In this document: positions 8,395-24,414 of the stretch, piece by piece | Position numbering within the stretch: the stretch's first letter is position 1 | How the letters are laid out: each line of letters opens with the position of its first letter | Sequence record: DRR723986_13700 | Strand: one strand, 5' to 3' | DNA length: 24,414 nucleotides | Notes under the pieces: generated by a model | Told to the model about the DNA's origin: nothing | The model's input: the letters and a program-made list of their open reading frames with translations, nothing else | Database searches by the model: none | Program-made: the position numbers and the translations under genes

Positions 8395-8428
8395 ACATCT
8401 GTGATGTTTTTTAACACTCAAATCACAG

Positions 8429-8436: not shown

Positions 8437-8502
8437 CATAGATTTAACCCAAGAAGTGAAAATATAAATTAATTAACTAAGCAATTAACTTAAAAATATT
8501 GT

Positions 8503-11400
8503 ATGAAAACATTCTTAAATGCTTTATTATTCTGTTTAATTATAGTACCCGCAACGTTGGCAGCACAATCAACTGTCTCAGGTACAATTACAGATAAGGC
8601 AAACGCTATGCCATTACCTGGCGTAAATGTGATTATCAAAGGTACTTCCAGAGGTACCTCTACCGATTTTGATGGTAAGTACTCTTTAGAAGTCAATCAA
8701 GGAGAAACTTTAGTATTCTCGTATTTAGGATTTACAACTCAAGAAGTTGTATTTACCGGTCAATCAACCATAGACATAACTCTAGAAGAGGATGCCGCCC
8801 AATTAGACGAAGTGGTTTTAATTGGTTATGGTTCAACTACGAAACAAGACGCCACAGGTGCTGTTGAAAAAGTTGGTGATGAAGAATTTAACCGTGGTGC
8901 TATTGTAGCGCCTCAACAACTTATTGCTGGTAAAGCTGCAGGTGTAAGAATTACATCTGGTGGTGGTGGCGCTGGTGAAGGTGGTGAAATTAGAATACGT
9001 GGTGGTGCATCATTATCTGCGTCTAACAACCCGCTTATTGTAATTGACGGTTTACCAATAGACCAACGTGGTGGTGCACAAGGAAGTCGAAATGCATTAA
9101 ACGCTATTAACCCAGCAGATATTGAAGATTTCGTAGTCCTTAAAGATGCATCAGCAACCGCAATTTATGGTTCGAGAGCATCTAACGGTGTAATTTTAAT
9201 TACAACTAAAAAAGGTTCTGCTAACCAACCTCTAAAAGTAGAGTATGGCTTACAAGCTTCTACACGTAGAATTACTAATAAAGTAGACGTGTTGAGTGCT
9301 AACCAATACAGAACAGTTGCTGCCGATAACGGTATAGATCCAGCTACATTTGGAAATTCTAATACGGATTGGCAAGATGAAATCTTTACGACTGGTATAG
9401 GAGCTATACATAATATTACTGCTTCTAAGGGTTATGAGAATTTTAATTTTAGAGTAAACTTTAACCATGTATCACAGGAAGGACCATTATTAGGTGATTT
9501 ATATGAGAGAAATGGTTTTAACACTTCTTTTGTTCACAAGTTTTTAGATAATGATTTAAAATTAACTGTAGTCGCAAGAGGTATTCAAGATGAATATAAT
9601 TATGCAGACGGTGCTGCAATAGGACAAGCAGTGGCATTTGACCCGACTCAACCTGTTAGAGATGAGAACGGAAACTTCACACAATTAGGAGCTAATTTAG
9701 CGCCAGCGAATCCTTTGTTTACTTTGGCAAACACTAATGATAGACAAACGATTAAAAGATTTATTTCTAATTTTAATGTTGACTATAGATTCTGGTTCTT
9801 AAAAGACTTAAAGTTCAACTTAAATGCTGGTATTGACTATGCAGAAAACGAAGGAGCGAGGTATGCGGCAGCCAACCCAAATAACCCTGATGCTTTTCCA
9901 TTTGTTGGGCAATCAGAAGGTCTAAATAGAAATACGGCTTTAGATTTTTTCCTTAATTATAAAAAGACTTTAGAGTCACTAAATACTACTGTTGATATTA
10001 CGGCTGGTCATGCGTTCCAAGAATTTTATGTACGTTCATTCATAGATGAAGGCGCAGGCCCTAATATCACAGTTGATACTGACATTAATAGAAATGCACT
10101 AGAATCATATTTTGCGAGAGCAAGTTTTGATATTGCGGATAAATATTTAATTTCAGCAAGTTTCAGAAGAGATGGTTCTTCAAGGTTTAGTGAAGACAAT
10201 CGTTGGGGATCTTTCCCTGGTCTATCTGTAGGTTGGAAAGTTACAAATGAGGATTTCATGCAAGATTCTTTTTTCTCTAATTTAAAGTTAAGAGCTGGTT
10301 GGGGTGTTACTGGTCAGCAGGAAATTGGTGAAAATTATGGTTATTTGGGTCTTTACACTCCATCACGTAATAATCAAGCTAATATTCAATTTGGTACTTC
10401 TGTAAACGGTGAACCAATTTTTATCCAAACGTTAAGACCAGAAGGATTTGATGAAAATCTTAAATGGGAAGAGACAACACAATACAATGTCGCATTAGAT
10501 TTCGGATTCTTCAATAATAGATTAACTGGTACAGTCGATGCTTACTATAGAGAAACTGAAGATTTATTGGCAACAGTACCTGTACCTGCAGGATCTAATC
10601 TAACCGATTTAATCACTACAAATGTGGGTGCAATAACAAGTAAAGGTATTGAGTTTAGTTTAAATGGTGTGATTGCTCAGAAAGAGGATTTTGGTTGGGA
10701 TACTAACTTTAATATTACTTTCCAAGAACAAGAAATAACAAAATTAAGTTTAAGTGATGATCCAAACTTCTTCATACAAACTGGTGGTATTTCTGGTGGT
10801 GTTGGTAACAATATTCAGATATGGAAACCAGGATATGATCCATCAACATTCTTTGTATTCCGTCAGGTATACGATAATGATGGCAACCCAATTGAAGGTG
10901 CTTATGTTGATGTCAACGGTGATAATCAAATTACGGAGGCAGATAGACAACCTTACAAAAAAGCAACTCCAGATGCCTTTATAGGATTCACCAATAACTT
11001 TAGATATAAAAATTTAGATTTAAACTTTACGTTTAGAGGAAGTTTTGGTAACTACGTATACAATAACGTAGCTTCAGATAGAGGTAACACTAATGCTATT
11101 GTAGGTCAGCCAGGATATACTGCCAATGCACATGCTAGTGTTTTAGACACAAATTTCTCTGGTCAAAACCTATTTTCTGATGCTTATATTCAGAGAGCTG
11201 ATTTTGTAAGATTAGATAACATTTCATTAGGATATACAATCCCATTTGAAAAAATTACTTTGAGAGCATCATTAACTGCTACAAACGTATTTGTTATCAC
11301 TGAATATGATGGACTTGATCCTGAAATTGGAAATGGTATAGAAAATAACTTCTATCCAAGAACAAGAGATGTTGTATTAGGATTAAATTTTACTTTCTAA
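8503..11400 (+). CDS. susC: SusC/RagA TonB-dependent outer-membrane transporter (maltooligosaccharides)
   Basis: Signal peptide; PLPGVNV..KGT..GT.TDFDGKY domain; LDEVVLIGYG; IRIRGG; NPADIEDFVVLKDASATAIYGSRASNGVILITTKKG; RRDGSSRF; LKWEET; C-terminal Phe. Confidence 0.98.
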   Translation: MKTFLNALLFCLIIVPATLAAQSTVSGTITDKANAMPLPGVNVIIKGTSRGTSTDFDGKYSLEVNQGETLVFSYLGFTTQEVVFTGQSTIDITLEEDAAQLDEVVLIGYGSTTKQDATGAVEKVGDEEFNRGAIVAPQQLIAGKAAGVRITSGGGGAGEGGEIRIRGGASLSASNNPLIVIDGLPIDQRGGAQGSRNALNAINPADIEDFVVLKDASATAIYGSRASNGVILITTKKGSANQPLKVEYGLQASTRRITNKVDVLSANQYRTVAADNGIDPATFGNSNTDWQDEIFTTGIGAIHNITASKGYENFNFRVNFNHVSQEGPLLGDLYERNGFNTSFVHKFLDNDLKLTVVARGIQDEYNYADGAAIGQAVAFDPTQPVRDENGNFTQLGANLAPANPLFTLANTNDRQTIKRFISNFNVDYRFWFLKDLKFNLNAGIDYAENEGARYAAANPNNPDAFPFVGQSEGLNRNTALDFFLNYKKTLESLNTTVDITAGHAFQEFYVRSFIDEGAGPNITVDTDINRNALESYFARASFDIADKYLISASFRRDGSSRFSEDNRWGSFPGLSVGWKVTNEDFMQDSFFSNLKLRAGWGVTGQQEIGENYGYLGLYTPSRNNQANIQFGTSVNGEPIFIQTLRPEGFDENLKWEETTQYNVALDFGFFNNRLTGTVDAYYRETEDLLATVPVPAGSNLTDLITTNVGAITSKGIEFSLNGVIAQKEDFGWDTNFNITFQEQEITKLSLSDDPNFFIQTGGISGGVGNNIQIWKPGYDPSTFFVFRQVYDNDGNPIEGAYVDVNGDNQITEADRQPYKKATPDAFIGFTNNFRYKNLDLNFTFRGSFGNYVYNNVASDRGNTNAIVGQPGYTANAHASVLDTNFSGQNLFSDAYIQRADFVRLDNISLGYTIPFEKITLRASLTATNVFVITEYDGLDPEIGNGIENNFYPRTRDVVLGLNFTF

Positions 11401-11404
11401 AAAA

Positions 11405-13036
11405 ATGAAAAATAAATATATAAACAACAAAGCTATGATGTTAAGAACAATTAAAAGTTTTCTAGTTGTGCTGACAGTTGCATTTTTTATGCAATCTTGT
11501 GCAGATCGATTAGATTTACAGCCAGAAGACGAACGTCTCACAGCTGATGCCGCCTTTGAAAACCCAGAGGCTTATAAGCAATTTTTGGCAAAAATTTATG
11601 CCGGTATTTCTTTGAGTGGACAGCAAGGACCTGCAGGTTCACCAGATTTGGCTGGATTAGATGAAGGATTTTCCAACTACTTAAGATTATATTGGAAAAT
11701 GCAACAGTTAACTACTGATGAGGCAATTATTGGATGGAATGATGGTACAATTCAAGATTTACATGGTCAAGTTTGGACTTCAGGAAATGAATTCATTAGA
11801 ACTATGTATACAAGAATAATGTATCAAGTTACATTATGTAATGAATATTTACGTCAAACAACTGATGCTAAATTAAGTGACAGAGGTGTAGACTCAGAGT
11901 TAAGAGCAGAAATACAAACGTATAGAGCAGAAGCTCGTTTTATGAGAGCCTTAACTTATTGGCATGCCATGGATTTATTTGCTAATCCACCATTTGTAAC
12001 AGAAGATGATCCAACAGGAGCTTTTCTTCCGCCACAAATCGAGAGAGCAGATTTATTTGATTTCGTTGAATCTGAGTTATTAGCAATTTTAGATGATATG
12101 GTTGCACCACGTCAAAATGAATATGGAAGAGCTGATAGAGCAGCTGCTTGGATGGTACTCGCTAAGATATATTTAAATTCTGAAGTATATACAGGTACAC
12201 CACGTAACACAGAAGCATTAAACTATGTAAACAACATTATTAATGAAGGCTATACTATTCCTGAAATTCCATATTTTCATTCATTCCTAGCTGATAATGA
12301 TTCAAATGGAGCTCAAGAAGAAGTAATTTTCACAATTCCATTTGACGGTTTAAGAACACAAGCATTTGGTGGTATGACGTTCTTAACGCATGCACCAGTT
12401 GGAGGTTCTATGAACCCTGCTGATTTTGGAATAAACGGTGGATGGTTTGGTATCAGAACTACACCGACATTTGTTGAGCAGTTCCCAGGGGAAGAAAATT
12501 CAGCTGATGGACGTGCATTATTATACACAGATGGCCAAAATAAGGATATTGAAGAAGTAGGACCTTTTAACCAAGGATATGCCGTTGCTAAATACAGAAA
12601 TGTAGATGTAGATGGTAATCCTGGTTCAGATGCTTCGGGTGATCACATCGATACGGATTTCCCAATGTTTAGATTGGCGGATGCCTATTTAATGTATGCT
12701 GAAGCAGTTTTAAGAGGTGGCGGTGGTTCTGCAAGTACTGCAGTAGATTACATTAACGAGCTAAGAGAGCGTGCCTACGGAGATACTAGTGGTAACATAA
12801 CAGAAACAGATTTAACCTTAGACTTCATTATAGATGAACGTTCAAGAGAATTATATTGGGAGTGCCATAGAAGACAAGATTTAATTAGATTCGATCAGTT
12901 CTCAGACCAAGGAGTTTGGCAATGGAAAGGTAATGTACCTCAAGGAACTACTACAGAATCTTTTAGAGATATTATGCCAATTCCAGCAACGGACTTAGGT
13001 ATAAACACCAATTTAACACAAAACCCAGGATACTAA
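11405..13036 (+). CDS. susD: SusD/RagB glycan-binding lipoprotein; true start may be the ATG at 11435 or 11438
   Basis: Lipobox MQSC; AEARFMRALTYW, FRLADAYLMYAEA, DERSRELYWECHRRQDLIRF, C-terminal QNPGY. Confidence 0.97.
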   Translation: MKNKYINNKAMMLRTIKSFLVVLTVAFFMQSCADRLDLQPEDERLTADAAFENPEAYKQFLAKIYAGISLSGQQGPAGSPDLAGLDEGFSNYLRLYWKMQQLTTDEAIIGWNDGTIQDLHGQVWTSGNEFIRTMYTRIMYQVTLCNEYLRQTTDAKLSDRGVDSELRAEIQTYRAEARFMRALTYWHAMDLFANPPFVTEDDPTGAFLPPQIERADLFDFVESELLAILDDMVAPRQNEYGRADRAAAWMVLAKIYLNSEVYTGTPRNTEALNYVNNIINEGYTIPEIPYFHSFLADNDSNGAQEEVIFTIPFDGLRTQAFGGMTFLTHAPVGGSMNPADFGINGGWFGIRTTPTFVEQFPGEENSADGRALLYTDGQNKDIEEVGPFNQGYAVAKYRNVDVDGNPGSDASGDHIDTDFPMFRLADAYLMYAEAVLRGGGGSASTAVDYINELRERAYGDTSGNITETDLTLDFIIDERSRELYWECHRRQDLIRFDQFSDQGVWQWKGNVPQGTTTESFRDIMPIPATDLGINTNLTQNPGY

Positions 13037-13055
13037 TTAACACGATAAATAAAAA

Positions 13056-14243
13056 ATGAAAAAATTATCAATTTTAGGCCTTTTCATCTTTGCCTTAGTA
13101 AGTTTTAATAGTTGTGAAACGGAAGATGATGTAGTCTTCACAACAGATAATAATGCTGAATTAGCGTTTACAAATAACTTTTCAGCAGAATATATATTAA
13201 CACCACAAACAGCAAGTAATTTAGGTGAGCGTTTCACTTGGAATGATGCTGGTGTAGATGTACCAACTAATGTTACATATCAATTACAGAAATCTATTTC
13301 TGGTGATTTTACAGATTTAGAAACTATAGGTGCAACAACAGGAAACGAAATTGCAATAACTATAGGAGATATGTTAGCATATGCTAATCAAGCTGGTTTA
13401 GATGCTGACCCAGAAACAGAAGCACCGAATACAGGAGACGTATTTTTTAGATTACGTTCATTTGTAGGTGATGGAAGTTTAGAGAACTTCTCTGCTACTC
13501 AAGCATTAACATTAGTTATGCAAGAAGTAACAGAAACTCAAGCTGCAGTTTGTGATTTAGATCAGTATTTCTTAGTAGGTGCTGCTGTTAAATTTACAGG
13601 ATGGGATTGGGGTACACCACAAAAAGCTGTATGTACAGGTACAAACGTTTATACTGTAAATGTAGATTTAATAAATAATGTTGATGGTGACGGTAACTTC
13701 AGATTTTTCACAACTGAAACAGATTGGGGATCAGGAATTAATTATCCTGGTTTCTTAGATGCTGGTTACACTATTGATTCAATGTTCGAGGATGCACAAG
13801 ATGGTGACAATAACTTCTTATTTACTGGACCTTCTGGAAAGTATTTCTTAACTATTGATGCATTAAACAAAACAATTACACTAGATGACCCAACTTCACA
13901 GGGGAATTGTGACTTAGACCAATTATGGGCTGTAGGTGCAGGATTACCAGATGCTGGTTGGGACTGGGGAACTCCAGTACAATTAATGTGTGAAGGAGAC
14001 GGTGTATATTCTGGTTGGGTAAATTATACTAGCGCTGTTGATGGAAACAACTTTAGATTCTTTACTACAGCTACTGATTGGGGATCTGGTCAAAACTATC
14101 CATTCTTTGAAGATGCTGGTTATACTATAGATGCAAACTTTGAGAATGCTCAGGATGGTGACTTAAATTTTGCGTTTATTGGTTCAGATGGTCAATATTT
14201 CACTACTATAGATACTGTAAACAAAACTATTACTTTAGAGTAG
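13056..14243 (+). CDS. susE: SusE/SusF-like surface glycan-binding lipoprotein with two tandem CBM-like repeats
   Basis: Lipobox FNSC followed by acidic ETEDD; SusE-type N-domain (FTW..A...VTYQLQ); two Trp-rich repeats (VGA...GWDW...FRFF...DWG); position after susD. Confidence 0.8.
   Translation: MKKLSILGLFIFALVSFNSCETEDDVVFTTDNNAELAFTNNFSAEYILTPQTASNLGERFTWNDAGVDVPTNVTYQLQKSISGDFTDLETIGATTGNEIAITIGDMLAYANQAGLDADPETEAPNTGDVFFRLRSFVGDGSLENFSATQALTLVMQEVTETQAAVCDLDQYFLVGAAVKFTGWDWGTPQKAVCTGTNVYTVNVDLINNVDGDGNFRFFTTETDWGSGINYPGFLDAGYTIDSMFEDAQDGDNNFLFTGPSGKYFLTIDALNKTITLDDPTSQGNCDLDQLWAVGAGLPDAGWDWGTPVQLMCEGDGVYSGWVNYTSAVDGNNFRFFTTATDWGSGQNYPFFEDAGYTIDANFENAQDGDLNFAFIGSDGQYFTTIDTVNKTITLE
13551..14240 (+). 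repeat. Intragenic tandem duplication (13551-13886 and 13908-14240)
   Basis: Both copies read CDLDQ...GWDWGTP...C...NFRFFTT.TDWGSG.NYP.F.DAGYTID..FE.AQDGD.NF.F.G..G.YF.TID..NKTITL; about 70 of 112 residues identical by hand alignment. Confidence 0.95.
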
Positions 14244-14280
14244 TCTAAATATTCTAATTACTATAAAATAGAATGATTTA

Positions 14281-14316
14281 AAGGCTATGTTATTACTAAT
14301 GACATAGCCTTTTTTT
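14281..14316 (+). terminator. Rho-independent terminator between susE and the amylase gene
   Basis: AAGGCTATGTTATTA / TAATGACATAGCCTT stem with one G-U pair, followed by a T-tract. Confidence 0.8.
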
Positions 14317-14332
14317 ATAATATTTCAATGCT

Positions 14333-17260
14333 ATGAAAAAATTAATACAATTTGTTTTAATACTCATTACATTTCAGTTAAATGCTCAAATCTCTGTAAA
14401 TCCGGCAGCATTTGAAGTTGACCAACAAATAACTATTACAGTTGATATCAACAGTACTGATTCTGATTGTAATGGAATTAGCAATCCAGGAGCAGTTTAT
14501 ATGCACTCCGGAATAGGTGATAATACCAATGCTTTTGGATTTTCTGTAATTGGTAACTGGGGACAAGATGATGGTGTTGGTGAAATGACAAATAATGGTG
14601 ATGGGACTTATAGTATTACTATTACACCAGAAACATACTATGGATTAGATGCTACTCAGGCACAAAATGCAACTCAACTCGGTATTGTTTTTAGAAATGA
14701 AGATGGTACGCTAGAATTAAAGGATAATGGTTGTAACGATTTTATTTTAAGAGTTGGTATTGTAAATATCAATATAATTGAACCAACAGGTTCTGCCGTG
14801 GTTGTTAATTTGGGAGATGATTTAACTGTCAAAACAAGTCTAAATTTCCAAGGAAATCTTACTCCAGGAGCATTTGAATTATATTTTAATAATGTGTTTC
14901 AAAACGGAGGTAACGGGTTTACAACTTATCAAGGTGTAATAACCAATATTACAACAAGTGGTACAGTTAGAATTGATGGATCACCGCTTTCTTCATCTGA
15001 ATCTGGCTCTGCCTCATTTGAAGTAGTTGTTGCTCCTACAGTTATTGAAGAAGCTTTACCAGCAAATTTAGTAGATGGTATTAATTATGACTCTGACTTA
15101 ACCAAGGCTACATTAGTATTAACAGCACCAGGAAAAGAATTTGTTCAAATTGCCGGTAGCTGGAATAGCTATACTCCGTCAAACTCTGATGTGATGAAGC
15201 GTGACCCAAGTTCAGGTAAATATTGGTTAGAGATTACAGGATTAACACCTGGGCAAGTTGAAACTTATCAATATTGGGTTTTTGATACAAATCCTATCGC
15301 AGGCTCTCCAAGTCAAGTAAAAGTTGCTGATCCTTATTCAACTTTAGTTTTATCACCTTTTGATGATCCGTTCATACCAGCAAGTACATTTCCTAATTTA
15401 CCACCTTACCCAGCTGGACAAGAGCGTGAAGTTACAGTATTACAAACTGGGCAAACACCATACAATTGGCAAGTGACTAACTTTAATAAACCAAAAGAAG
15501 AAGATTTAATTGTATATGAATTATTAGTAAGAGATTTTGATGCAGATCGAAACTATCAAGATATTATTGACAGGATAGATTATTTCAAAAACTTAAACAT
15601 TAATGCTATTGAGTTGATGCCTGTGATGGAATTTGAAGGTAACGAAAGTTGGGGTTATAACACATCTTTTCATATGGCTTTAGATAAATTTTACGGAACA
15701 CCTGAAAAATTTAAGGAGCTTATTGATGTATGCCATCAAAATGGTATTGCAGTAATACTAGACATAGCCTTTAATCACGCATTTGGTCGTAATCCAATGG
15801 TTAGAATGTGGATGGATGATCCTGATGGTGATGGTTGGGGAGGACCTTCAACAGAAAACCCATATTTTAATGTTTTTCCAACACATGCTTTTAGTGTGGG
15901 TAATGATTTTGACCATAGTAGCCAGTTAACTAAAGACTATGTGAAAAATGTAGTTACCTATTGGATTGAGGAGTTTAAAATAGATGGATTCCGTTGGGAT
16001 CTCACCAAAGGATTTACGCAAAATTGTGGCAATGGCACTTACGATGGAGATTTTGGCTGTACTCAAGATGAAAGTCAGGCTAATGACAGAGTTGCCGTAT
16101 TAAAAGACTATGCAGATCATTCATGGTCTGTGGATCCTGACCACTATGTAATTTTTGAGCATTTAGGTAATGACAATGAAGAAAAAGAATGGGCTAATTA
16201 TCGATTAGACGAAGGAAAAGGTATTATGATGTGGGGAAAAATGACTTCAGAATATAATGAATTAACCATGGGTCAGGATGGAAATAAAGATTTCCGTCGT
16301 ATTGGACATAATAACCATTTTGGTTTCAATGGTCCTAGAGTAATTGGTTATCCTGAAAGTCATGATGAAGAGCGCCTAATGTATAACAACCTTGCTAATG
16401 GTAAAAACTTTGGTGGTTACAACATTACAGACTTAAATACAGCGTTATCAAGAATGTCTGCGCTAGGTGCTATATCTGTATTAGTTCCCGGACCTAAAAT
16501 GATTTGGCATTTTGGTGAGTTAGGCATGGAAAATTCAATTTTTACCTGTAATAATGGCTCAACTAATTTCCCTGGAGATGGTGATGGCCCTGGCGATTGT
16601 AAATTAGATACTAAACCACAACCCCAATGGACAAATAACTGGCTTAGTGATGCTTTAAGAGGTCAGATTTATAACGATTGGGCTAGAATGCATGCCTTAA
16701 AAATAAATGAAGCTGTTTTTGAAGGCAACTATACTATTAACCAACCGAGCCAGTGGCCAACACCATTTGTTCCTAGGATAGACATCTTTGATGGTTCAAT
16801 ACCTGATACAGCACTTAAAAATGTCGTTATATTCGCTAATTTTGATGTTGTAAATCAGACTTTCAATCCTAGTTTTCCAGGAGGTGTAACCTCAACATGG
16901 TATGATTTAATGGATGAGTCAGGTTCTACAACTGTTAGCCAGACGACGACATCAATAACATTAGCTCCAGGAGAATTCAGGGTATTTGGTAACCAATCTG
17001 TAGGTTCATTAAGTACAAATGACGAAACAATTACTAAGTTCTCAATATATCCTAATCCTACTAATTCTGCATTTAGTATTAGTTTAAATGTTTCGGATAT
17101 TGAAATCTATGATTTAACAGGTAAGATAGTGAAGTCCTTTAGAGGAACTTTTACGAGAACCGATACGTTTGATATTTCTGCTCTAAATACAGGAATGTAT
17201 ATTGTAAAAGTAGAAAATAACAATAATCAAACGATGACAACCAAGTTAGTCAAGCTCTAA
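14333..17260 (+). CDS. Secreted multidomain GH13 alpha-amylase (N-terminal CBM-like domain, CBM48-like domain, GH13) with T9SS type-A C-terminal sorting domain
   Basis: Sec signal ending LNA-Q; APGKEFVQIAGSWN (CBM48-like); VYELLVRDF, IELMPV, SWGYN, LDIAFNH; catalytic GFRWDLTKG, IFEH, ESHDE; CTD IYPNP...IYDLTGK...GMYIVKV...TKLVKL. Confidence 0.93.
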   Translation: MKKLIQFVLILITFQLNAQISVNPAAFEVDQQITITVDINSTDSDCNGISNPGAVYMHSGIGDNTNAFGFSVIGNWGQDDGVGEMTNNGDGTYSITITPETYYGLDATQAQNATQLGIVFRNEDGTLELKDNGCNDFILRVGIVNINIIEPTGSAVVVNLGDDLTVKTSLNFQGNLTPGAFELYFNNVFQNGGNGFTTYQGVITNITTSGTVRIDGSPLSSSESGSASFEVVVAPTVIEEALPANLVDGINYDSDLTKATLVLTAPGKEFVQIAGSWNSYTPSNSDVMKRDPSSGKYWLEITGLTPGQVETYQYWVFDTNPIAGSPSQVKVADPYSTLVLSPFDDPFIPASTFPNLPPYPAGQEREVTVLQTGQTPYNWQVTNFNKPKEEDLIVYELLVRDFDADRNYQDIIDRIDYFKNLNINAIELMPVMEFEGNESWGYNTSFHMALDKFYGTPEKFKELIDVCHQNGIAVILDIAFNHAFGRNPMVRMWMDDPDGDGWGGPSTENPYFNVFPTHAFSVGNDFDHSSQLTKDYVKNVVTYWIEEFKIDGFRWDLTKGFTQNCGNGTYDGDFGCTQDESQANDRVAVLKDYADHSWSVDPDHYVIFEHLGNDNEEKEWANYRLDEGKGIMMWGKMTSEYNELTMGQDGNKDFRRIGHNNHFGFNGPRVIGYPESHDEERLMYNNLANGKNFGGYNITDLNTALSRMSALGAISVLVPGPKMIWHFGELGMENSIFTCNNGSTNFPGDGDGPGDCKLDTKPQPQWTNNWLSDALRGQIYNDWARMHALKINEAVFEGNYTINQPSQWPTPFVPRIDIFDGSIPDTALKNVVIFANFDVVNQTFNPSFPGGVTSTWYDLMDESGSTTVSQTTTSITLAPGEFRVFGNQSVGSLSTNDETITKFSIYPNPTNSAFSISLNVSDIEIYDLTGKIVKSFRGTFTRTDTFDISALNTGMYIVKVENNNNQTMTTKLVKL

Positions 17261-17283
17261 TAAATTTAAGTGTTAATTCGAGC

Positions 17284-17320
17284 AAAAAAAAAGAGCTTCT
17301 CTGCGAGAAGCTCTTTTTTT
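17284..17320. terminator. Rho-independent terminator ending the PUL, potentially bidirectional
   Basis: A9-GAGCTTCTC-TGC-GAGAAGCTC-T7. Confidence 0.9.
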
Positions 17321-17339
17321 ATTTTTTTGTATTAATACT

Positions 17340-17741
17340 CTCAAACTTTTTCTAATCACATTAACATTATCGTTCTATACATCCATCGATGCACAAAAAT
17401 TAAAAAGCACCTATGGAATAGTAGAATTATTGTATTAGTATCGAACGATACAGAAACTATAAAAACCAATAATTTGATTACGGAAATTAAAACATACACC
17501 ACAGGCCCTAAAGAAAAAAATTATACACAGCATCCTACCGCAAAACTATAGTGTTGAATAAAACTTGGTTAAGAGTGATGAACTATATAATTCTCTTAAT
17601 CCAGAAAAAGAGGATTTTAAATTCATACTTATTGAATTCGATGGTAAAATTAAAGTTGTAAAAAGTCAACCTCTATTAAGAAAAGAGCTTATTGCAATTA
17701 TAGATGTAATACCAATGCGTTCATTTAAGATAAAGAAATAA
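17340..17741 (+). pseudogene. Degraded DUF4174-like small secreted protein gene
   Basis: Stitched translation: LKLFLITLTLSFYTSIDAQKL / KHLWNSRIIVLVS...GPKEK / IIHSILPQNYSVE*NLVKSDELYNSLNPEKEDFKFILIEFDGKIKVVKSQPLLRKELIAIIDVIPMR...K*. There are two frameshifts in A-runs, a TAA at 17559-17561 and no ATG. It resembles the DUF4174 pattern as I recall it (W..R.l....F...LIG.DG..K....L...ID.MPMR). Confidence 0.75.
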
Positions 17742-17772
17742 AAAACCAACCATAAAAATTCATGGTTGGTTT
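17731..17772 (-). terminator. Rho-independent terminator for the lipoprotein pair
   Basis: 11-bp stem AAACCAACCAT (17743-17753) / ATGGTTGGTTT (17762-17772), followed on the minus strand by a T-rich tail. Confidence 0.8.
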
Positions 17773-17840: not shown

Positions 17841-18326
17841 TTAATTCTTCTCAAATGTAAGCATATCCGTACCGCCATTACCGCCACTAATATCAATGAG
17901 TTCAATTCTAGTAGATGTCGTCGTTACGACGTCCCAATCATCATTGAGGTCCTCAAAATCGTTACTATCTGGCACAGGGAAGAAAATATTAAAATCGATA
18001 TCATCATCACTACTGCTATCATCACTACTATTACTGTCATCTGTTACTGACCATGTTCCAGTCAAAGTATTTGTACCATTTGTGGCTACAAGAGAGCCAT
18101 CAGAGTTAAAGCTAAAGTCATAGCCACTAAAATCTGAGGTTTCATTTTCACCAGAATCATTAAAATTGGTAATTCTCCAAGTGCCTGATTCTGCGGTATT
18201 CTCAATCTGTGCAATTTCCTGATTGTTGTTGTTTGAATTTCCATCGTCATCGTCATTTGAGCACATTGATGACATTAAGGTAAAACTTAACATTAATAAA
18301 AATCCAAGATTAAATACTTTTTTCAT
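17841..18326 (-). CDS. Acidic lipoprotein, single lipocalin-like beta-barrel domain; function unknown
   Basis: Signal peptide ending SSMC then SNDDDD; GTWRIT...F.F.SDG....GTW...DLNDDWDV....IEL.DISGGNGGTD.LTFEK; homologous to the C-terminal repeats of the upstream gene. Confidence 0.8.
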   Translation of the reverse strand: MKKVFNLGFLLMLSFTLMSSMCSNDDDDGNSNNNNQEIAQIENTAESGTWRITNFNDSGENETSDFSGYDFSFNSDGSLVATNGTNTLTGTWSVTDDSNSSDDSSSDDDIDFNIFFPVPDSNDFEDLNDDWDVVTTTSTRIELIDISGGNGGTDMLTFEKN

Positions 18327-18356
18327 AATTCTTTGTTTTAGGTTGATAATAGTGTT

Positions 18357-20141
18357 TTATATTTTTTGAAGAGTTAAGGTGTCGGTGCCGCCGCCACCTC
18401 CGCTTACATCTCGGAGTACAACTTCTGTATCTGATGAAGAAATAACATCCCAATCATCATCATTAAATTCTTCAAATGGTAAACTAGCACCAAAATTGAG
18501 AGCCATTTGGTTACCTGCACTTAATACAGCCCAGGTACCATTATTTGTATTAGAGCCATTTGAAGCTGAAACAGTTCCATCCATATTAAAGTCTATTTCA
18601 TAACCGGCATAGTCAGAAGTTTGGTCATCGCTATCTTCGGTGTAAGCAGCTACTATCCACAAACCGTCCAATAATATAGCTTCTAAGTCACTATTTCCAT
18701 TTCCACCGTTAAAAGGGTTGCGCTCAAAAGTTATAAAGTCTTCAGACCCATCACCACCACTGACGTCTTTTAATCTAATAATGTCATTGGTTACTTCAAG
18801 AACATCCCAATCATCGGTTAATTCATCAAGTGGAATACCATTGCCAAAGTTTAGATTTAATCCTAGTTCTGTTTCATCTCCAGAGGTTGTTGACCATGAA
18901 CCAGCAGTCACTCCACTCATGTCTGTAGCAGTTGCTGTATTGTCTGATGAAAAATTGAATACATATTCTACAAAATCTGAAGTCTCGTCAGTATCATCAA
19001 AAAAGTAAGTTACATACCAATCTCCATTTGTTAATGCATTGACTAAAACTGTATCATCAACATTTCCGTTAGATTCACAATCACTTTCAAATTCTAAACG
19101 ATCATCACCTAATCTCAAATCTACTTCCCATTCATCATCATCTTGATCAATCTCATGTAAGTTCCAAGTGTCATTAAAATCTGGCAATCCTGGAATATCA
19201 ATAGTTACTGAAATATTATTTCCTGTTCCAGATGCGTTCCATGTTCCATTAAAGGTATTTGCTCCTTGTGTCACTAAAATGCTTCCATCACTATTAAATT
19301 CAAATGTATACCCTACATAATTATCTTCGAGATCGTTATCATTTCGCTCTAGACCATCTACAGTCCATTCAGAGCAATCTGCAAAAACGGTTTCGAGGTC
19401 ATTAGTTGTGCAGTTATCACAATCATCGTCATCAAAATCATTATCATCATCTTCATCACAAGTATCATCTGCGCTTTCAATGGCATTTTCTAATTCTTGT
19501 ATTGAGTTTATAGTTTGGGTAGTTCCATCAGCAAGGATTACAGTAATTGGGAAGTTAATCGTAGCAGCAGCATATTCATCTAAATCATCAATAAAATCGT
19601 ACATGTCATTATCATTATTGATGGTGATGGAATCGATTATATCATTGTTTTCATCAAAAACAGAGACCGTAATAGGATATTGGAAATCAATACATTCTAT
19701 ATCGTCATCATCTTCATTTTCGCCAACACAATTAACTACAAGAGCTGCCAATTCAGAATCAGAGTTAACAACAACAGTTGTATAATCCGTTAGTATTACA
19801 GTTATAGGATATGAAATTATAATAGAATCTATATCATCATCAAACAAATCTATAATATCCTCAACGTTTTCATAACCATCTTCATCGTTAATTTCAATTT
19901 CAATACCATTAACTGTTACTGTTACAGGAAGTTCAACACTCAAACAACTCGCATTATCAATAATATTATCACTAGATCCATCATTAGTTGCTGTTCTGCT
20001 CATTAGGTCTGCTATAGGTGAATTGGCCTCAATAGTTTCTTCCACTGGTGGATCAATTTCTAAATCGTCTTCGGTTCTACAAGAAGTCATAGTGATTAAA
20101 ATCCCTATAACTAGTAGTAAGATTGGCTTCAATGTTTTCAT
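18357..20141 (-). CDS. Large, highly acidic multidomain lipoprotein (594 aa from the ATG at 20141); function unknown
   Basis: The ATG at 20141 gives the clean signal MKTLKPILLLVIGILITMTSC-RTEDD; two Cys-bracketed N-terminal repeats (YPITV/FPITV) and three lipocalin-like repeats. Confidence 0.85.
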   Translation of the reverse strand: MKTLKPILLLVIGILITMTSCRTEDDLEIDPPVEETIEANSPIADLMSRTATNDGSSDNIIDNASCLSVELPVTVTVNGIEIEINDEDGYENVEDIIDLFDDDIDSIIISYPITVILTDYTTVVVNSDSELAALVVNCVGENEDDDDIECIDFQYPITVSVFDENNDIIDSITINNDNDMYDFIDDLDEYAAATINFPITVILADGTTQTINSIQELENAIESADDTCDEDDDNDFDDDDCDNCTTNDLETVFADCSEWTVDGLERNDNDLEDNYVGYTFEFNSDGSILVTQGANTFNGTWNASGTGNNISVTIDIPGLPDFNDTWNLHEIDQDDDEWEVDLRLGDDRLEFESDCESNGNVDDTVLVNALTNGDWYVTYFFDDTDETSDFVEYVFNFSSDNTATATDMSGVTAGSWSTTSGDETELGLNLNFGNGIPLDELTDDWDVLEVTNDIIRLKDVSGGDGSEDFITFERNPFNGGNGNSDLEAILLDGLWIVAAYTEDSDDQTSDYAGYEIDFNMDGTVSASNGSNTNNGTWAVLSAGNQMALNFGASLPFEEFNDDDWDVISSSDTEVVLRDVSGGGGGTDTLTLQKI

Positions 20142-20203
20142 AATGTATTGGTTTTTAATTTTAAGTTTGTTTGCTAATGGGCTTTTAAATTGCCTCTTTA
20201 TAT

Positions 20204-20231
20204 TAAAACAACTCAATAAAAAATAGTCCCA
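20204..20231 (-). promoter_or_regulatory. Putative ECF-sigma promoter driving the lipoprotein pair
   Basis: Minus strand TGGGAC-tattttttattga-GTTGTTTTA; boxes and 13-nt spacer match the copy at 20819-20846. Confidence 0.72.
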
Positions 20232-20290
20232 AGAAAAAAATAAATTTATTTTTATTTATCTTTCTTTTTTGAAATCAAAAAACTCAAACC

Positions 20291-20809
20291 TTGCCAAAAT
20301 CATTGCACCAACATATATGTGACAAAAGTCGCTTCTCAAAAATCTATGAGAAGTACGCTCAAACACTGAGTAATATTTTGTTTTACAAATATGGTGAACT
20401 TTTAAATCCTGCTGACAAAGTACAAGAGGCGTTTATTAAGCTATGGGAAAACTGTGCTAAAATAAAACCAGAAACTGCAAAATATTATTTATATACCACG
20501 GCAAACAATATGATGCTAAATGAAGTTAAGCATCAAAAGGTAGTTTTAAAATATCAGCAAGTTAAACCAAAAGATTATACCAACGAATCTCCAGAATTTA
20601 TCCTGCGCAAGAAGGAGTTTCTAAAACGGTTTGAACATGTTCTATCTCAATTAAAAGAAGAAGAACGCGTTGCATTCTTACTAAATAAAGTAGACGGTAA
20701 AACACATAAAGAGGTTGCAGAAATTTTAGGCATTACAAAAAAAGTAGCTGAACACAGAATCTATGCTGCTTTAAATAAACTTAAAGATGAGCTTGAAGAA
20801 TTAAATTAA
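20291..20809 (+). CDS. ECF-type sigma-70 factor (TTG start)
   Basis: Region 2 DKVQEAFIKLWEN...YLYTTANN; region 4 ERVAFLL...GKTHKEVAEILGITKKVAEHRIYAAL; 172 aa; upstream of fecR. Confidence 0.95.
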   Translation: MPKSLHQHICDKSRFSKIYEKYAQTLSNILFYKYGELLNPADKVQEAFIKLWENCAKIKPETAKYYLYTTANNMMLNEVKHQKVVLKYQQVKPKDYTNESPEFILRKKEFLKRFEHVLSQLKEEERVAFLLNKVDGKTHKEVAEILGITKKVAEHRIYAALNKLKDELEELN

Positions 20810-20818
20810 AAATAATTC

Positions 20819-20846
20819 TGGGACATTTATTATTTAAGTTGTTTTA
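20819..20846 (+). promoter_or_regulatory. Putative ECF-sigma promoter driving fecR and the TBDR
   Basis: TGGGAC-atttattatttaa-GTTGTTTTA in the 55-nt sigma/fecR spacer, 18 nt before the fecR ATG. Confidence 0.72.
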
Positions 20847-20864
20847 TAAATATAACATCATGTT

Positions 20865-21767
20865 ATGGACAAAGAACAATTAATAAAAAAGTGGTTAAAT
20901 AATGACCTGTCAGAGACAGAGTCAAAGGCTTTCAACGCGTTGAAAGATGCCAACTTATTTAAAGAAATTATTGAAGAAGCTCAACGATTCAGTGGTAATA
21001 CACATGCAAATGTTGAATCCTTTGATGCATTAGATAAGATATTAGTTTCTAAAAAGACTACATCTACAAATTGGATGACGATAGTTTCAAGTTTAGCCGC
21101 TATTCTAGTTGTTGGTTTTGCATTGTTTACCGTAATCAATACAGACCAAATAAACTCTTTTAAGACCGATTTAGCTCAAAACGAGACCATCACTCTACCA
21201 GACAATTCAATAGTTAATCTAAATGAGTTATCAGAGCTAGAGTATGTAAGTTCTAATTGGGACGAGAATAGATCTTTAACCCTAAAGGGTGAAGCTTTTT
21301 TTGATGTGGAAAAAGGAAAACGATTCGATGTTAATACCGCATTTGGTAAAGTAAGTGTTCTAGGTACAGAGTTTAATGTTCTATCAAGAGATCGTATTTT
21401 CAAAGTATCCTGTTATGAAGGTTTGGTGCAAGTAACTCATAATAATAAAGATATTAAACTTCCTGCTGGAACTGAATTTATTTTATCATCAGGAAAAGGA
21501 TTAAAGACAAGCATTGCAGTCGCTGAACCCTATTGGCTTAAAAACATGAGTGTTTTTGAAAATGCGTCTTTTGAGGCAGTTGTTGAGGAACTAGAAAAAC
21601 AATACAACATCAGCATACAATATCCATCTGAGCTAAATATCAATTTCACAGGTGCTTTTGAACATAACAATCTTGAAAATGCTCTAAAATCCATATCAAA
21701 ACCCCTTAATTTGACCTATACCATTCAAAATACTAACGAGGTCATTATAAAGAATGGGCAAAACTAA
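20865..21767 (+). CDS. fecR: FecR-family anti-sigma factor / transmembrane sensor
   Basis: Single TM segment (IVSSLAAILVVGFALFTVI); TLPDNSIVNLN, LKGEAFFDV, VSVLGTEFNV; C-terminal FEN..F..VV.ELE.QY...FTGAF domain. Confidence 0.93.
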   Translation: MDKEQLIKKWLNNDLSETESKAFNALKDANLFKEIIEEAQRFSGNTHANVESFDALDKILVSKKTTSTNWMTIVSSLAAILVVGFALFTVINTDQINSFKTDLAQNETITLPDNSIVNLNELSELEYVSSNWDENRSLTLKGEAFFDVEKGKRFDVNTAFGKVSVLGTEFNVLSRDRIFKVSCYEGLVQVTHNNKDIKLPAGTEFILSSGKGLKTSIAVAEPYWLKNMSVFENASFEAVVEELEKQYNISIQYPSELNINFTGAFEHNNLENALKSISKPLNLTYTIQNTNEVIIKNGQN

Positions 21768-24258
21768 ATTTTACATAATTCTTGTACTATACTTCGTGCC
21801 ATTTTATATAGCGCCAGGACAAACCTCAGAGCAAAAAGTTCCAATTACGGAAGTATTGCAACAAATCACAAAAACACATTCAATTAGTTTTAATTACGAA
21901 AGCAGCCTTTTGGAAGATATATTTGTCGTTCCAGTTTCAGAGGATATAAGCTTGGCAACTAAGATTAAAAACCTGGAAAAGCAAACTAATTTAGTTTTTG
22001 AAAAGGTTAGCAATCTAGTTTACACCATTTCTAAAACTATTAGATTGTGTGGTTATATAAAAGATTCAGAATTAGAACAGCCACTTACAAATGCTACTAT
22101 AACAAGCAAGTTAGCTTATACTGTCACTGATGAGAATGGATATTTTGAAATTGAGTTGAAGTCTCTAAATGAATTGGTAACCATAAGACATATAGGATTT
22201 AAAACTATAGAACGCCAAGTAAAGTATTTTAGTTTAGAAGGCTGTGCATCGCTTACAATGTTTATTCAACAAGAAGTTATAGCACCAGTACTCATTGAAA
22301 CATATCTTGTGAGAGGTATAGACAAAAGACAAGACTGGACAACTTCAATAGATTACAAAAAGTTTAGCCTATTACCTGGTCTTATTGAATCTGATGTTCT
22401 TCAAACAGTACAAGCCTTACCAAGTATTTCAAGTATTGATGAAACAGTTTCTAATATTAACATTAGAGGTGGTTCTCACGATCAAAATCTGATACTTTGG
22501 GACAACATTAAAATGTATCAAACAGGACATTTTTTTGGCCTCATATCTAGTTTTAATCCACTTATGACGCAAACTGCTAGTGTTATTAATAATGGGTCAG
22601 ATGTCTCATTAACTGATGGTGTCTCTGGGACTATACACATGCAGACGGATAAACAACTAGACTCTAAATTCAATGGTGTTTTTGGAGTTAATTTTTTAAA
22701 TGCTGAATCGTTTTCAAACATTCCAATTGGTCATAAATCATCTCTTCAAATTGCCTCTAGAAAATCTTTAGATGACCTTTTTAGAACTCCGACTTACAAT
22801 GCGTATTTCGAAAGAGTAACCCAAGATACTGAAGCTAAAAATAATATCTCTAATGTCACCAATTCTAATCAAGAATTTAATTTCTATGACACTTCGTTAC
22901 GATGGTTATATCAACCAACGGATAAAGACCAAATTCGATTAAATTTTATTCTCATAAATAATGATTTAGGCTTCAATGAAACGGCTGATATCAATGGAAT
23001 ATCCAGAACTAGACGCAGTAACATATCGCAAAACAGCCTTGCAATTGGTATAAATTATAAAAGACAATGGAACGAAAAACTCAATTCAACTATTAATATA
23101 TACAATAGTGAATATAAACTAGAAGCTCTCAATGCCGACGTATTGAGCAATCAGTTACAATTACAGGAGAACGTTGTTTCCGAAACAAGTATCCAACTAA
23201 ATAACTTATATGAGCAAAAGCAATGGCGTTTTAATCTAGGATATCAATTTACAGAAACCGAAGTTATTAACTTAAATGATATTGATTTACCTAGATTTGT
23301 GAGACGCGATGAGGAAATCTTAAGAGAACATAGTACTTACAGTCAAGCCTGGTATAAAAGTTCTGACAATGACTTTTCTATTAGAGGTGGCATAAGAGCA
23401 AATTACCTAACTCGGTTTGAGAAACTGATTATTGAGCCAAGATTAAGCCTAAGAAAGTCTATTGGCCAACATATTGAAATTGAAGCTCAAGGAGAATTTA
23501 AACATCAAAACACCACACAGATAGTCAATTTCCAAAATGATTTTTTAGGCATTGAAAGGAGGCGTTGGCAATTAACAGATGATGATAGTATTCCTGTAAT
23601 ACAAAGTAAACAAGCGTCCTTAGGTATAACATATAAAAAAAACGGATGGTTATTAGACGCCAAAGGCTATTATAAAACAGTTGATGGCATAACAACACAA
23701 AGCCAGAGCTTCACCACTAAATACGAATTTGCAAAAGAAAAAGGAAGTTTTAGTGTTTATGGTATTGAGTTTTTATGTAGAAAGAAATTAGGTAGTTTTA
23801 ATAGTTGGTTAAGTTATTCGTACATGAACAACATCTACACCTTCAAAGCTCTTGAAGATATTGAGTTTCCAAGTAATTTTGACATTTCACATTCTGTTAC
23901 TTTGGGAACAACGTTTAGTAATAACTCTTGGAATGTTTCAGCCGGATTAAATTACAGAACAGGAAAACCTACCTCTATCCCTTTAAGTGGGAATGAAATA
24001 ATTGATGATGATGTCAATTTTGATAAAGCGAATAACGAAAGATTATTAGATTATCTAAGAATTGATGCTTCTGCTATATATAAGTTCAAAATAAGTAATA
24101 CGTTACGGTCAGAAATTGGAGCTTCCATCTGGAATATTTCTAATAGAGAAAATGCCATAAATAACTACTTTAGAGTTAATGAAAGTGATACTGTAAATGG
24201 ATTTTCAAGGTTTTCTTTGGGATTAACCACCAATGCTGTTATTCGTATTTACTTCTAA
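21754..24258 (+). CDS. TonB-dependent receptor/transducer with N-terminal signalling (STN-like) domain; non-SusC type
   Basis: Signal peptide; STN-like ITEVLQQI...ISFNY...L..LEKQTNL.F; carboxypeptidase-regulatory-like GYIKD...TDENGYF...IGFKT; plug NIRGGSHDQNLILWDNI; YLRIDAS; terminal Phe; overlaps fecR by 14 nt. Confidence 0.92.
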   Translation: MGKTKFYIILVLYFVPFYIAPGQTSEQKVPITEVLQQITKTHSISFNYESSLLEDIFVVPVSEDISLATKIKNLEKQTNLVFEKVSNLVYTISKTIRLCGYIKDSELEQPLTNATITSKLAYTVTDENGYFEIELKSLNELVTIRHIGFKTIERQVKYFSLEGCASLTMFIQQEVIAPVLIETYLVRGIDKRQDWTTSIDYKKFSLLPGLIESDVLQTVQALPSISSIDETVSNINIRGGSHDQNLILWDNIKMYQTGHFFGLISSFNPLMTQTASVINNGSDVSLTDGVSGTIHMQTDKQLDSKFNGVFGVNFLNAESFSNIPIGHKSSLQIASRKSLDDLFRTPTYNAYFERVTQDTEAKNNISNVTNSNQEFNFYDTSLRWLYQPTDKDQIRLNFILINNDLGFNETADINGISRTRRSNISQNSLAIGINYKRQWNEKLNSTINIYNSEYKLEALNADVLSNQLQLQENVVSETSIQLNNLYEQKQWRFNLGYQFTETEVINLNDIDLPRFVRRDEEILREHSTYSQAWYKSSDNDFSIRGGIRANYLTRFEKLIIEPRLSLRKSIGQHIEIEAQGEFKHQNTTQIVNFQNDFLGIERRRWQLTDDDSIPVIQSKQASLGITYKKNGWLLDAKGYYKTVDGITTQSQSFTTKYEFAKEKGSFSVYGIEFLCRKKLGSFNSWLSYSYMNNIYTFKALEDIEFPSNFDISHSVTLGTTFSNNSWNVSAGLNYRTGKPTSIPLSGNEIIDDDVNFDKANNERLLDYLRIDASAIYKFKISNTLRSEIGASIWNISNRENAINNYFRVNESDTVNGFSRFSLGLTTNAVIRIYF

Positions 24259-24300
24259 AGATTAAGTTGTCTATATACTTGTATTTAAATTCTATTGATC

Positions 24301-24328
24301 AAAAAAGCCAACTCGTAAGAGTCAGCTT
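24301..24328 (-). terminator. Terminator downstream of tRNA-Leu, convergent with the TBDR gene
   Basis: Minus strand AAGCTGACTC-TTAC-GAGTTGGCTT-TTTT, with two G-U pairs that form only on the minus strand. Confidence 0.7.
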
Positions 24329-24338
24329 CTTGATTATG

Positions 24339-24414
24339 TACAGGCGGCGAGACTCGAACTCGCACACCTCGCGGCACTAGATCCTAAGTCTAGCGTGTCT
24401 ACCAATTCCACCAC
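24339..24414 (-). tRNA. tRNA-Leu (anticodon TAG); about 6 nt of the 5' end lie outside the window
   Basis: Minus strand: D-arm GTGGAATTGGTAGACAC, anticodon arm CTAGA-CTTAGGA-TCTAG, long variable arm, T-arm GCGAG-TTCGAGT-CTCGC, acceptor 3' strand CGCCTGT-A; CCA not encoded. Confidence 0.97.

Follow-up and report, generated by a model that had tools for sequence, protein, structure and literature searches.

The stretch of DNA analyzed here (sequence record DRR723986_13700), referred to below as the window, is 24,414 nucleotides long and carries between positions 17841 and 24258 a block of five genes that together resemble a cell-surface signaling unit. On the plus strand lie genes for a sigma factor of extracytoplasmic function (ECF) type (20291 to 20809; 172 residues from a TTG start), a FecR-type anti-sigma factor (fecR, 20865 to 21767; 300 residues), and a TonB-dependent transporter/transducer (TBDT, 21754 to 24258; 834 residues), the last two overlapping by 14 nucleotides. 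Head-to-head with these, on the minus strand, are two genes for acidic lipoproteins: lipoB (18357 to 20141), whose 594-residue product starts with MKTLK and has its lipid-carrying cysteine at residue 21, followed by RTEDD, and lipoS (17841 to 18326), which encodes 161 residues with a single lipocalin-like domain and the sequence SNDDDD after the lipid cysteine. Aligned with LipoB, LipoS gives matches to three stretches in tandem, of which the strongest reaches 38% identity (E = 2e-18). The gene calls and these matches confirm an initial annotation of this DNA, which had described two lipoprotein genes sharing a domain and arranged head-to-head with a sigma-fecR-TBDT set; the five-gene block is real. 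It also lacks SusD, carbohydrate-active enzymes, and ABC transporters, both by the gene list and in family scans, as that annotation had stated.

The start assignments of two of the five genes deserve comment. An automated list of open reading frames (ORFs) extends lipoB to a TTG at 20216 (18357 to 20216), and we place the start at the ATG at 20141 because the orthologs all begin there and because the TTG falls within a promoter-like site described below. Sigma orthologs align from residue 1, that is, from the TTG start codon. The sigma factor itself matches Sigma70_r2 (PF04542, E = 4.7e-9) and r4_2 (PF08281, E = 2.1e-12) and scores above the cut-off for TIGR02937. The anti-sigma factor has a single membrane span at about residues 70 to 92, a FecR domain (PF04773, E = 5.7e-17), and a FecR_C domain (PF16344, E = 1e-13); within the FecR domain, Gly167-Thr168 is a predicted self-cleavage motif by its sequence, and the Gly-Thr pair is present in all 74 FecR orthologs compared. 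The corresponding self-cleavage site of Escherichia coli FecR is given as Gly181-Thr182 in the pertinent passage of PMC12036975.

The block was also proposed to be bounded by terminators, and this holds on one side. About 70 nucleotides past the lipoS stop codon there is a terminator-like hairpin of 13 pairs followed by a T-run (17743 to 17772, minus strand). Downstream of the TBDT gene a terminator scan found none; an imperfect hairpin at 24296 to 24336 (z = -2.1, not assigned to a strand), which lacks a T-run and was not reported by the scan, lies past the TBDT stop codon and ahead of a convergent tRNA gene, and is a weak terminator candidate.

Linkage of the five genes across Flavobacteriaceae

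A scan of species-representative genomes with the TBDT yielded 77 loci from many Flavobacteriaceae genera, at 29 to 85% identity. All 70 loci that have at least 2.5 kb of upstream DNA carry a lipoB homolog upstream of the sigma gene and on the opposite strand, in 64 cases within 700 nucleotides of it; where less than 2.5 kb of upstream DNA is available, a homolog is visible in two of seven loci. When the 1,666 ORFs of at least 70 residues from the 77 loci are clustered, the recurring families are the TBDT (77 loci), FecR (75 loci), the sigma factor (72 loci), and the lipoproteins (119 ORFs in 72 loci), and the next real family is a 78-residue ORF in 15 loci. No co-conserved transporter, enzyme, or TonB gene is present among the ORF families of the 77 loci.

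The association is equally apparent when approached from the lipoproteins. In five whole genomes, 12 places match the N-terminal part of LipoB, of which 10 adjoin a sigma/FecR/TBDT set; five of those 10 belong to a genome's second or third module. The weakest matches (E = 4e-10 and 7e-7) are the two unlinked places. Genomes G001 to G004 have two or three whole modules each. An even sample of the phylum (401 genomes) contains 40 that match the LipoB profile at E ≤ 1e-10, with 32 listed places covering the N-terminal part. We examined 20 of these, leaving out the ten strongest, which are evident orthologs (E ≤ 1e-93), and two weak ones. The whole divergent module is present in 18 of the 20; one further place has fecR with a weak TBDT match only, and one has nothing. 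The initial annotation regarded the block as a self-contained unit, and this neighborhood analysis (70 of 70 loci, 10 of 12 and 18 of 20 places, and no further co-conserved family) supports that description, with the lipoprotein homologs remaining linked to this sigma/FecR/TBDT clade in other genomes.

The N-terminal part of LipoB, a pair of domains described below, is widespread: among 201 genomes sampled from the family, 138 contain it, with as many as five matches in a single genome, and it is found in 1,133 cluster representatives of a 1.8-billion-protein library. The host proteins range from 350 to 1300 residues, and the pair begins near residue 60 nearly always and is followed by a C-terminal part of variable length. 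Named relatives among the matches listed are all hypothetical or lipocalin-like proteins.

A few loci depart from the standard TBDT gene. The second-module TBDT of genome G003 (locus L078, 12099 to 14601) is recovered as two match pieces meeting at residue 549, which suggests a frameshift, and the TBDT ORF of locus L036 (10001 to 12511) stops after 469 residues although the match covers residues 1 to 834. These two copies may be decaying, or may reflect assembly errors.

A promoter-like site shared by the two operons

The same ECF-type promoter-like site, TGGGAC-N13-GTTGTTTTA, stands before both the lipoprotein operon (20204 to 20231, minus strand, 62 nucleotides before the lipoB ATG) and fecR-TBDT (20819 to 20846, plus strand, 18 nucleotides before the fecR ATG), in agreement with the shared motif noted initially. 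There are exactly two copies in the window, a number reached in none of 100 shuffles, as compared with 0.02 expected, and no further copies were found in the window with up to two mismatches allowed. The sharing recurs across the family. We compared the spacer before fecR with the 200 nucleotides before lipoB of the same locus, and in 48 of 72 loci an identical 6-mer is present at both sites at an identical spacing before xTTGT, whereas random stretches of the same loci give 0.4. The downstream half of the site, GTTGTnTA, is near-constant, whereas the upstream, -35-like half varies by clade and is nonetheless identical at both sites within a locus. Winogradskyella and Psychroserpens have TGGGAC, Tenacibaculum has CGGGAT, Kordia has GGGAAT, and Olleya, Flagellimonas, and Hanstruepera have CAGGAG, whereas Aequorivita, Eudoraea, and almost every distant module have GTAGGGT. 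When the entire lipoB-sigma spacer is considered, 52 of 72 loci have the site pointing toward the lipoprotein genes, and none of the 72 has it pointing toward the sigma gene.

The sigma gene has a different kind of site in front of it. At 20257 to 20264 (plus strand), 27 nucleotides before its start codon, is a TAnnTTTG-like box (TATCTTTC) of housekeeping type, and a TAnnTTT(G/C) box precedes the sigma gene in 39 of 72 loci as compared with 5.0 expected. We take this consensus to be the housekeeping -7 element of the phylum. A housekeeping-type -7 box is also implied by passages of the F. psychrophilum transcript-start paper (PMC9723704). The ECF motifs in those passages were considered as matches to the shared site and rejected, the motifs described there being other ones.

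The -35-like half also tracks the sigma factor. Among 98 modules (including that of the window), of which 96 can be assigned to a -35 class, residue 155 of the sigma factor, which lies in the region-4 helix that would read this DNA, is histidine in all 36 modules of the xGGGA(C/T) classes, tyrosine in all 26 of the CAGGA class, and lysine in all 34 of the TAGGGT, TAGGA, and GGGAAT classes. Paralogous modules within a genome mostly have different -35 halves, although two of three Kordia modules share TAGGGT. By comparison across loci, both sites thus carry the properties of a cognate ECF promoter, and no such site precedes the sigma gene. It is very probable, judging from these comparisons, that the sigma factor reads the sites before fecR-TBDT and before the lipoprotein operon, forming a two-promoter regulon. 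The lipoproteins had been named as the apparent output of the signaling module, and the paired change of the two sites between clades, their orientation, and the covariation with residue 155 all point the same way, the shared site behaving as would a promoter read by this sigma factor.

This interpretation does meet some resistance. A set of 20 of the 72 loci lacks an exact shared 6-mer across the whole spacer, and each -35 class is also a clade, so that shared descent alone could account for the way in which residue 155 follows the -35 half. At the extreme, the two sites would not be promoters of this sigma factor at all, and the neighborhood would be kept for some other reason. Their status as promoters is predicted from sequence comparison, and a scan with a sigma-70-type consensus gave fewer sites than shuffled DNA (28 versus 36.8). 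Nonetheless, the two sites vary jointly from clade to clade, their spacing and orientation are retained, and they track a residue in the DNA-reading helix of the sigma factor, all of which would be hard to account for in this way; we consider the absence of a regulon barely credible.

Two types of additional genes occur in the spacer of some loci. The ORF of about 78 residues present in 15 of the 77 loci (among them L012, L016, L035, L036, L050, and L078; the window lacks it) occupies the lipoB-sigma interval, on the same strand as the lipoprotein genes. It is helical, has no signal peptide, and is preceded by a promoter-like site of its own, the third clade-specific copy of such a locus, and is thus a candidate additional member of the regulon. 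Three loci (L002, at 4915 to 8394; L008; and L010) have a 3.7-kb insert in the same interval and on the same strand, containing the 78-residue ORF, a 129-residue ORF, a 300-residue exported protein, and a 618-residue multi-pass membrane protein, the last of which reads like a family-2 glycosyltransferase.

Lipoprotein architecture and candidate functions

The predicted structure of LipoB (predicted local distance difference test [pLDDT] score of 83.8, predicted template modeling [pTM] score of 0.44) starts with two domains of about 75 residues, each made of two beta-beta-alpha units and bracketed by conserved cysteines (C66-C138 and C150-C228). An Asp/Cys-rich linker follows, and then three lipocalin-like units (residues 259 to 353, 374 to 473, and 494 to 593), each modeled as an eight-stranded antiparallel barrel with a flanking helix. 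Neither Pfam nor NCBIfam has a family that matches the N-terminal domain pair, and an ESM Atlas look-up with residues 22 to 250 returned unnamed Bacteroidota clusters only, at 0.82 to 0.84, which is below the meaningful level. Three fold searches with LipoB were dominated by its lipocalin part (residues 361 to 594) and did not reach the N-terminal pair. The barrels match the Bacteroides lipocalin-like protein 4qrl (Z = 10.9, root mean square deviation of 2.3 over 94 aligned residues), then potempin E and a lipid-binding insect lipocalin (both Z = 10.7, with 4nyq a match at this score). Further matches are ToxS (Z = 9.5) and, at Z = 9.0, a surface glycan-binding protein through its C-terminal domain. 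In Pfam, the lipocalin and META models reach the lipoproteins only below their cut-offs; the modeled structure supports a lipocalin-like fold for the barrels of LipoB. The domain pair and one barrel are constant across loci, the number of barrels varies from one to four or more, and a separate lipoS homolog is present in 45 related loci, its presence being variable. Antisense to lipoB in the window is a Ser/Leu-rich ORF of 125 residues (19408 to 19785, plus strand) with equivalents in 30 loci; the simplest view is that it is no gene but arises because the codons opposite are rich in Asp and Glu.

Both lipoproteins are probably surface-exposed, to judge from the residues that follow their lipid cysteines. 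These are acidic (CRTEDD in LipoB and CSNDDD in LipoS, with CSSDDD as another such stretch), and acidic residues at +3 to +6 past the cysteine are conserved across the lipoprotein family; passages of PMC5080379 give C-X-K-(D/E)2-X, SDDDD, and SDDFE as export signals of Bacteroidota surface lipoproteins. An alternative placement would have the lipoproteins on the inner leaflet of the outer membrane, where they could act as periplasmic co-sensors that modulate the TBDT signaling domain or FecR in the manner of RseB or ToxS. The match to ToxS, a lipocalin-like co-sensor, fits this, as does the presence of RseB among weak Foldseek rows (E = 1.5e-3), and feedback parts might be expected in a regulon that includes an anti-sigma gene. 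The conserved acidic residues at +3 to +6, a feature of surface-exported lipoproteins of the phylum in the portion of PMC5080379 that deals with them, argue otherwise, and an array of up to four or more barrels would be hard to explain, such that a co-sensor role seems decidedly improbable.

The TBDT gene product begins with a signal peptide, and its predicted structure (pLDDT score of 83.0, pTM score of 0.72) has an alpha/beta STN-like domain at about residues 28 to 94, an Ig-like CarbopepD_reg-like domain (residues 96 to 170), a plug, and a large barrel. It is clear from this model that the protein has the plug-and-barrel fold of a transporter. At the level of sequence the window protein passes the cut-off for CarbopepD_reg_2 and narrowly misses that for Plug (22.7 versus 23.9 bits), has no STN, FecR_C, barrel, or SusC-family match in the family scans, and matches no NCBIfam model, the SusC family included, at E ≤ 0.01; a profile search against solved structures returned matches for the CarbopepD_reg-like domain alone (6ytc and 9hfj). 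Among 40 members of the TBDT family, Plug is detected in all 40, CarbopepD_reg_2 in 39, FecR_C in 12 (at the N-terminal domain), and a barrel model in 4.

Putting these components together, we propose a cell-surface signaling and uptake unit, wired like the Has heme system, in which the lipoproteins would capture a ligand; we regard this reading as evenly balanced between belief and doubt. Transcription of the sigma gene would start from its housekeeping-type promoter, and the FecR-type anti-sigma factor would keep the sigma factor at the inner membrane. Binding of an extracellular ligand to the TBDT would then be signaled through the N-terminal STN-like domain to the C-terminal domain of FecR, steps that we infer from the protein families, and by analogy with FecA/FecR and FoxA/FoxR, FecR would be cleaved and the sigma factor freed. 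The freed sigma factor would read its two cognate promoters, a step well supported by the comparative evidence: that before fecR-TBDT would supply more of the sensor together with its own brake, and the second would drive the divergent lipoprotein operon. The lipoproteins might be flipped to the surface and serve as tethered binding proteins, in which the invariable, Cys-bracketed N-terminal pair, positioned near the membrane, could dock on the transporter, and the lipocalin-like barrels, variable in number from one to four or more, could catch a small ligand, probably hydrophobic or cationic, and hand it over. The initial annotation had offered such capture, or else sensing or export of the lipoproteins by the receptor, as candidate roles. 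Taken separately, a working partnership between the lipoproteins and the TBDT falls slightly short of an even prospect. With no inner-membrane transporter in the unit, the ligand would have to be passed on by unlinked systems, or would be mainly a signal.

We have little confidence in any named ligand, and iron or heme illustrates why. In this special case of the proposed capture unit the lipocalin barrels would bind heme or a ferric chelate. The strongest Foldseek matches to the TBDT model are signaling and uptake proteins, with FoxA (E = 4.0e-21) followed by FecA, PhuR, FpvA, Fiu, and BtuB, and the siderophore and heme signaling transporters among these (FoxA, FecA, PhuR, and FpvA) are the best matches of all; the wiring equals that of the Has system; siderocalin and a heme-binding plant lipocalin are among the lipocalin matches (Z = 6.5 to 7.7); and transferrin-binding protein B (TbpB) appears in weak Foldseek rows for LipoB (E = 1.3e-3, probability 0.6 to 0.7, template modeling score 0.12 to 0.14). 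However, a SusC chain at rank 23 (E = 3.0e-19) is not set apart from the others, and the E-values of FoxA, SusC, BtuB, and the copper transporter OprC all fall within two orders of magnitude, so that the TBDT fold matches name no ligand. No heme or iron genes are linked across the 77 loci. Moreover, the occurrence of several modules in one genome (up to five domain-pair matches per genome, with two or three modules in G001 to G004), mostly with different promoters, suggests several different ligands. We consider an iron or heme ligand improbable.

A more substantial competitor dispenses with capture, with the TBDT only sensing and the lipoproteins forming an output independent of the transporter. 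They could coat the surface and there sequester cations, cationic peptides, or hydrophobic compounds that are toxic, or could alter the behavior of the outer membrane as does NigD of the Dma1/Das1 system. The lipoproteins are extremely acidic, with Asp and Glu making up 23.7% of LipoB and 19.9% of LipoS and Lys and Arg only 2 to 3% (2% in LipoB); we give residue percentages because the computed isoelectric points sit at the lower bound of the routine (4.05). Variation in the numbers of lipocalin repeats and of lipoprotein genes is as expected of a coat or sink, an inhibitor lipoprotein, potempin E, is among the best structural matches, and the sections of PMC10927553 on Dma1 offer a precedent of a Bacteroidota ECF module with uncharacterized lipoproteins as its main output. 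Set against this, the plug and barrel of the TBDT are complete and have many invariant residues, with 58% mean column identity over 40 sequences, which exceeds the apparent needs of a sensor, and the N-terminal domain pair of the lipoproteins hardly ever occurs without such a TBDT nearby, which suggests a physical partnership beyond shared regulation. We consider an output independent of the transporter rather unlikely, and retain the capture unit as the best reading.

Several observations temper the proposal of a capture unit. The 77 loci have no linked inner-membrane or periplasmic uptake gene, which fits a pure sensor equally well. The STN domain, on which transmission of the signal would depend, is only weakly detectable by sequence, in 5 of the 40 TBDT members. 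Surface exposure is predicted from a resemblance of the acidic stretch to export signals, and the lipobox of LipoS has an unusual Met at -1. Lipocalin-like lipoproteins also serve as a protease inhibitor (potempin E) and as a co-sensor (ToxS), and these two rank high among the structural matches. Finally, the RNA trace of the locus consists of three 151-nucleotide contigs from one estuarine metatranscriptome, two at least 99% identical to lipoB and one to fecR (18991 to 19304 and 21145 to 21295 of the window), and these may be carried-over DNA. More broadly, 19 runs from 14 studies hold at least part of the stretch, mostly from marine, seawater, estuary, and other aquatic sources; 17 runs hold at least half of its sampled words, and all but one of these are marked as probable DNA.

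Marine Flavobacteriaceae are main consumers of algal organic matter, and their TonB-dependent transporters are mostly interpreted as glycan importers. A gene unit of marine flavobacteria as widespread as this one, with a separately regulated TBDT and neither SusD nor enzymes, would point to a substrate class that current annotation misses. The regulon should be easily testable, since it has only four or five genes behind two promoters, whose -35 half is specific to the clade and follows one residue of the sigma factor, and the clade-specific pairs may form a natural set of orthogonal sigma-promoter pairs. We put forward, tentatively and as a conjecture that may well fail, that LipoB and LipoS represent a new family of surface "fishing-line" binding proteins, composed of a Cys-bracketed docking pair and a lipocalin array, that replaces SusD-type lids on small signaling TBDTs in most marine Flavobacteriaceae and imports non-glycan small molecules, with paralogous units mostly kept apart by a code relating sigma residue 155 (H, Y, or K) to the -35 half-site.

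The DNA flanking the unit is of a different nature. Directly upstream and outside of it, positions 1 to 17260 contain a complete-looking starch/maltodextrin utilization locus with an esterase, a glycoside hydrolase family 13 (GH13) cyclomaltodextrinase, a GH65 phosphorylase, a HAD phosphatase/mutase-like protein, and a 975-residue GH13 amylase with a type IX secretion tail, together with an MFS transporter, a LacI regulator, SusC, SusD, and a SusE-like protein. Between two terminators, at 17277 to 17741, lies the apparent wreck of a small exported protein gene, spread across three frames as pieces at 17277 to 17438 (signal-peptide-like), 17336 to 17551, and 17562 to 17741; it may resemble the DUF4174 family. 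At the other end, the convergent tRNA gene (24339 to 24414, minus strand), which is cut by the end of the window, is recognized by Rfam (42.6 bits) and was missed by ARAGORN.

Comparison with known systems

In the features tested, the unit is a member of the FecI/FecR/FecA type of cell-surface signaling systems, albeit with a weakly recognizable signaling domain. It has the same three components as Fec of E. coli and the FoxI/FoxR/FoxA and FpvI/FpvR/FpvA systems of Pseudomonas, including a FecR domain with a Gly-Thr motif and a TBDT fold best matched by FoxA, FecA, and FpvA. It differs from Fec and Fox in that periplasmic or inner-membrane transport genes are absent from the regulon as seen in the 77 loci, in the additional CarbopepD_reg-like domain between the signaling domain and plug of the TBDT, and in having the anti-sigma gene itself behind a sigma-dependent site.

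We take the TBDT to be about 200 residues shorter than SusC-type transducers, with which it shares the N-terminal order of signaling domain, CarbopepD_reg-like domain, plug, and barrel. The ECF/anti-sigma/SusC-SusD loci of trans-envelope signaling (PMC2709373) are likewise from this phylum and have a FecR-type anti-sigma factor, and ECF group 240 was compared alongside them; placement of our sigma factor in ECF240 is putative. In its entry on this Bacteroidota group, the 2021 classification paper (PMC7826278) lists no experimentally addressed member. Unlike the SusC-SusD loci, the unit has no carbohydrate-active enzymes and no NCBIfam SusC match, and SusD is matched by none of the five proteins and is not co-conserved in the 77 loci. 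We thus reject a glycan (SusC/SusD) locus, given that SusD and enzymes are lacking and the TBDT has no SusC-family match, and the proposal that this is not a polysaccharide utilization locus is supported on the same grounds.

We know of no description of BtuB-BtuG or XusA-XusB as being under ECF/FecR control. These Bacteroidota systems (PMC10404256 for BtuB-BtuG and PMC13142918 for XusA-XusB) are otherwise close in concept to the proposed unit, combining a non-SusC, small-molecule TBDT with surface lipoproteins to which the ligand binds first, and together with SusC-SusD they establish in this phylum the partnering of TBDTs with surface lipoproteins. The BtuG and XusB lipoproteins are of families unrelated to LipoB and LipoS in Pfam and fold searches. 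The Dma1/Das1/NigD system of Bacteroides thetaiotaomicron, as presented in sections of PMC10927553, is also an ECF module with a link to the outer membrane, and its strongest outputs are uncharacterized lipoproteins, one of them encoded adjacently. However, its anti-sigma factor carries an eight-stranded outer-membrane barrel, whereas here the anti-sigma factor has 300 residues with FecR and FecR_C domains and the barrel resides in a separate TBDT; in those sections, moreover, the system comes without a TonB-dependent transporter, its sigma factor belongs to ECF21, and its output affects vesicle formation. We reject a Dma-type system on account of the different anti-sigma architecture.

A full-text literature search, covering main texts, found no description of this module. 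The suggestion in the initial annotation of a new class of signaling is nonetheless overstated, insofar as the wiring matches Has and TBDT-lipoprotein pairs are established; the lipoprotein family and the combination of components stand as new. In the Has system of Serratia marcescens, according to the passages of PMC9249621 on its regulation, HasI drives hasS and hasR from a common -35 sequence and does not drive hasI; the regulon also includes HasA, the capture protein. The same two traits are evident in our unit, where the ECF sigma factor does not appear to drive its own gene, given that the site faces the sigma gene in 0 of 72 loci, and where the anti-sigma and receptor genes likewise stand behind the same -35 sequence, here through one site before the fecR-TBDT operon. 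In both, an extracellular capture protein is co-regulated with a TonB-dependent receptor, the capture role of LipoB and LipoS being a candidate one. The systems differ in that HasA is secreted and has its own export genes and a dedicated TonB paralog, whereas the candidates here are lipid-anchored lipocalin-like arrays and neither export (HasD/HasE) nor TonB genes are linked in the unit, and in the single-operon layout of Has as compared with the divergent one seen here. What is new in this unit is the lipoprotein family and the combination of components, within a wiring already known from Has.

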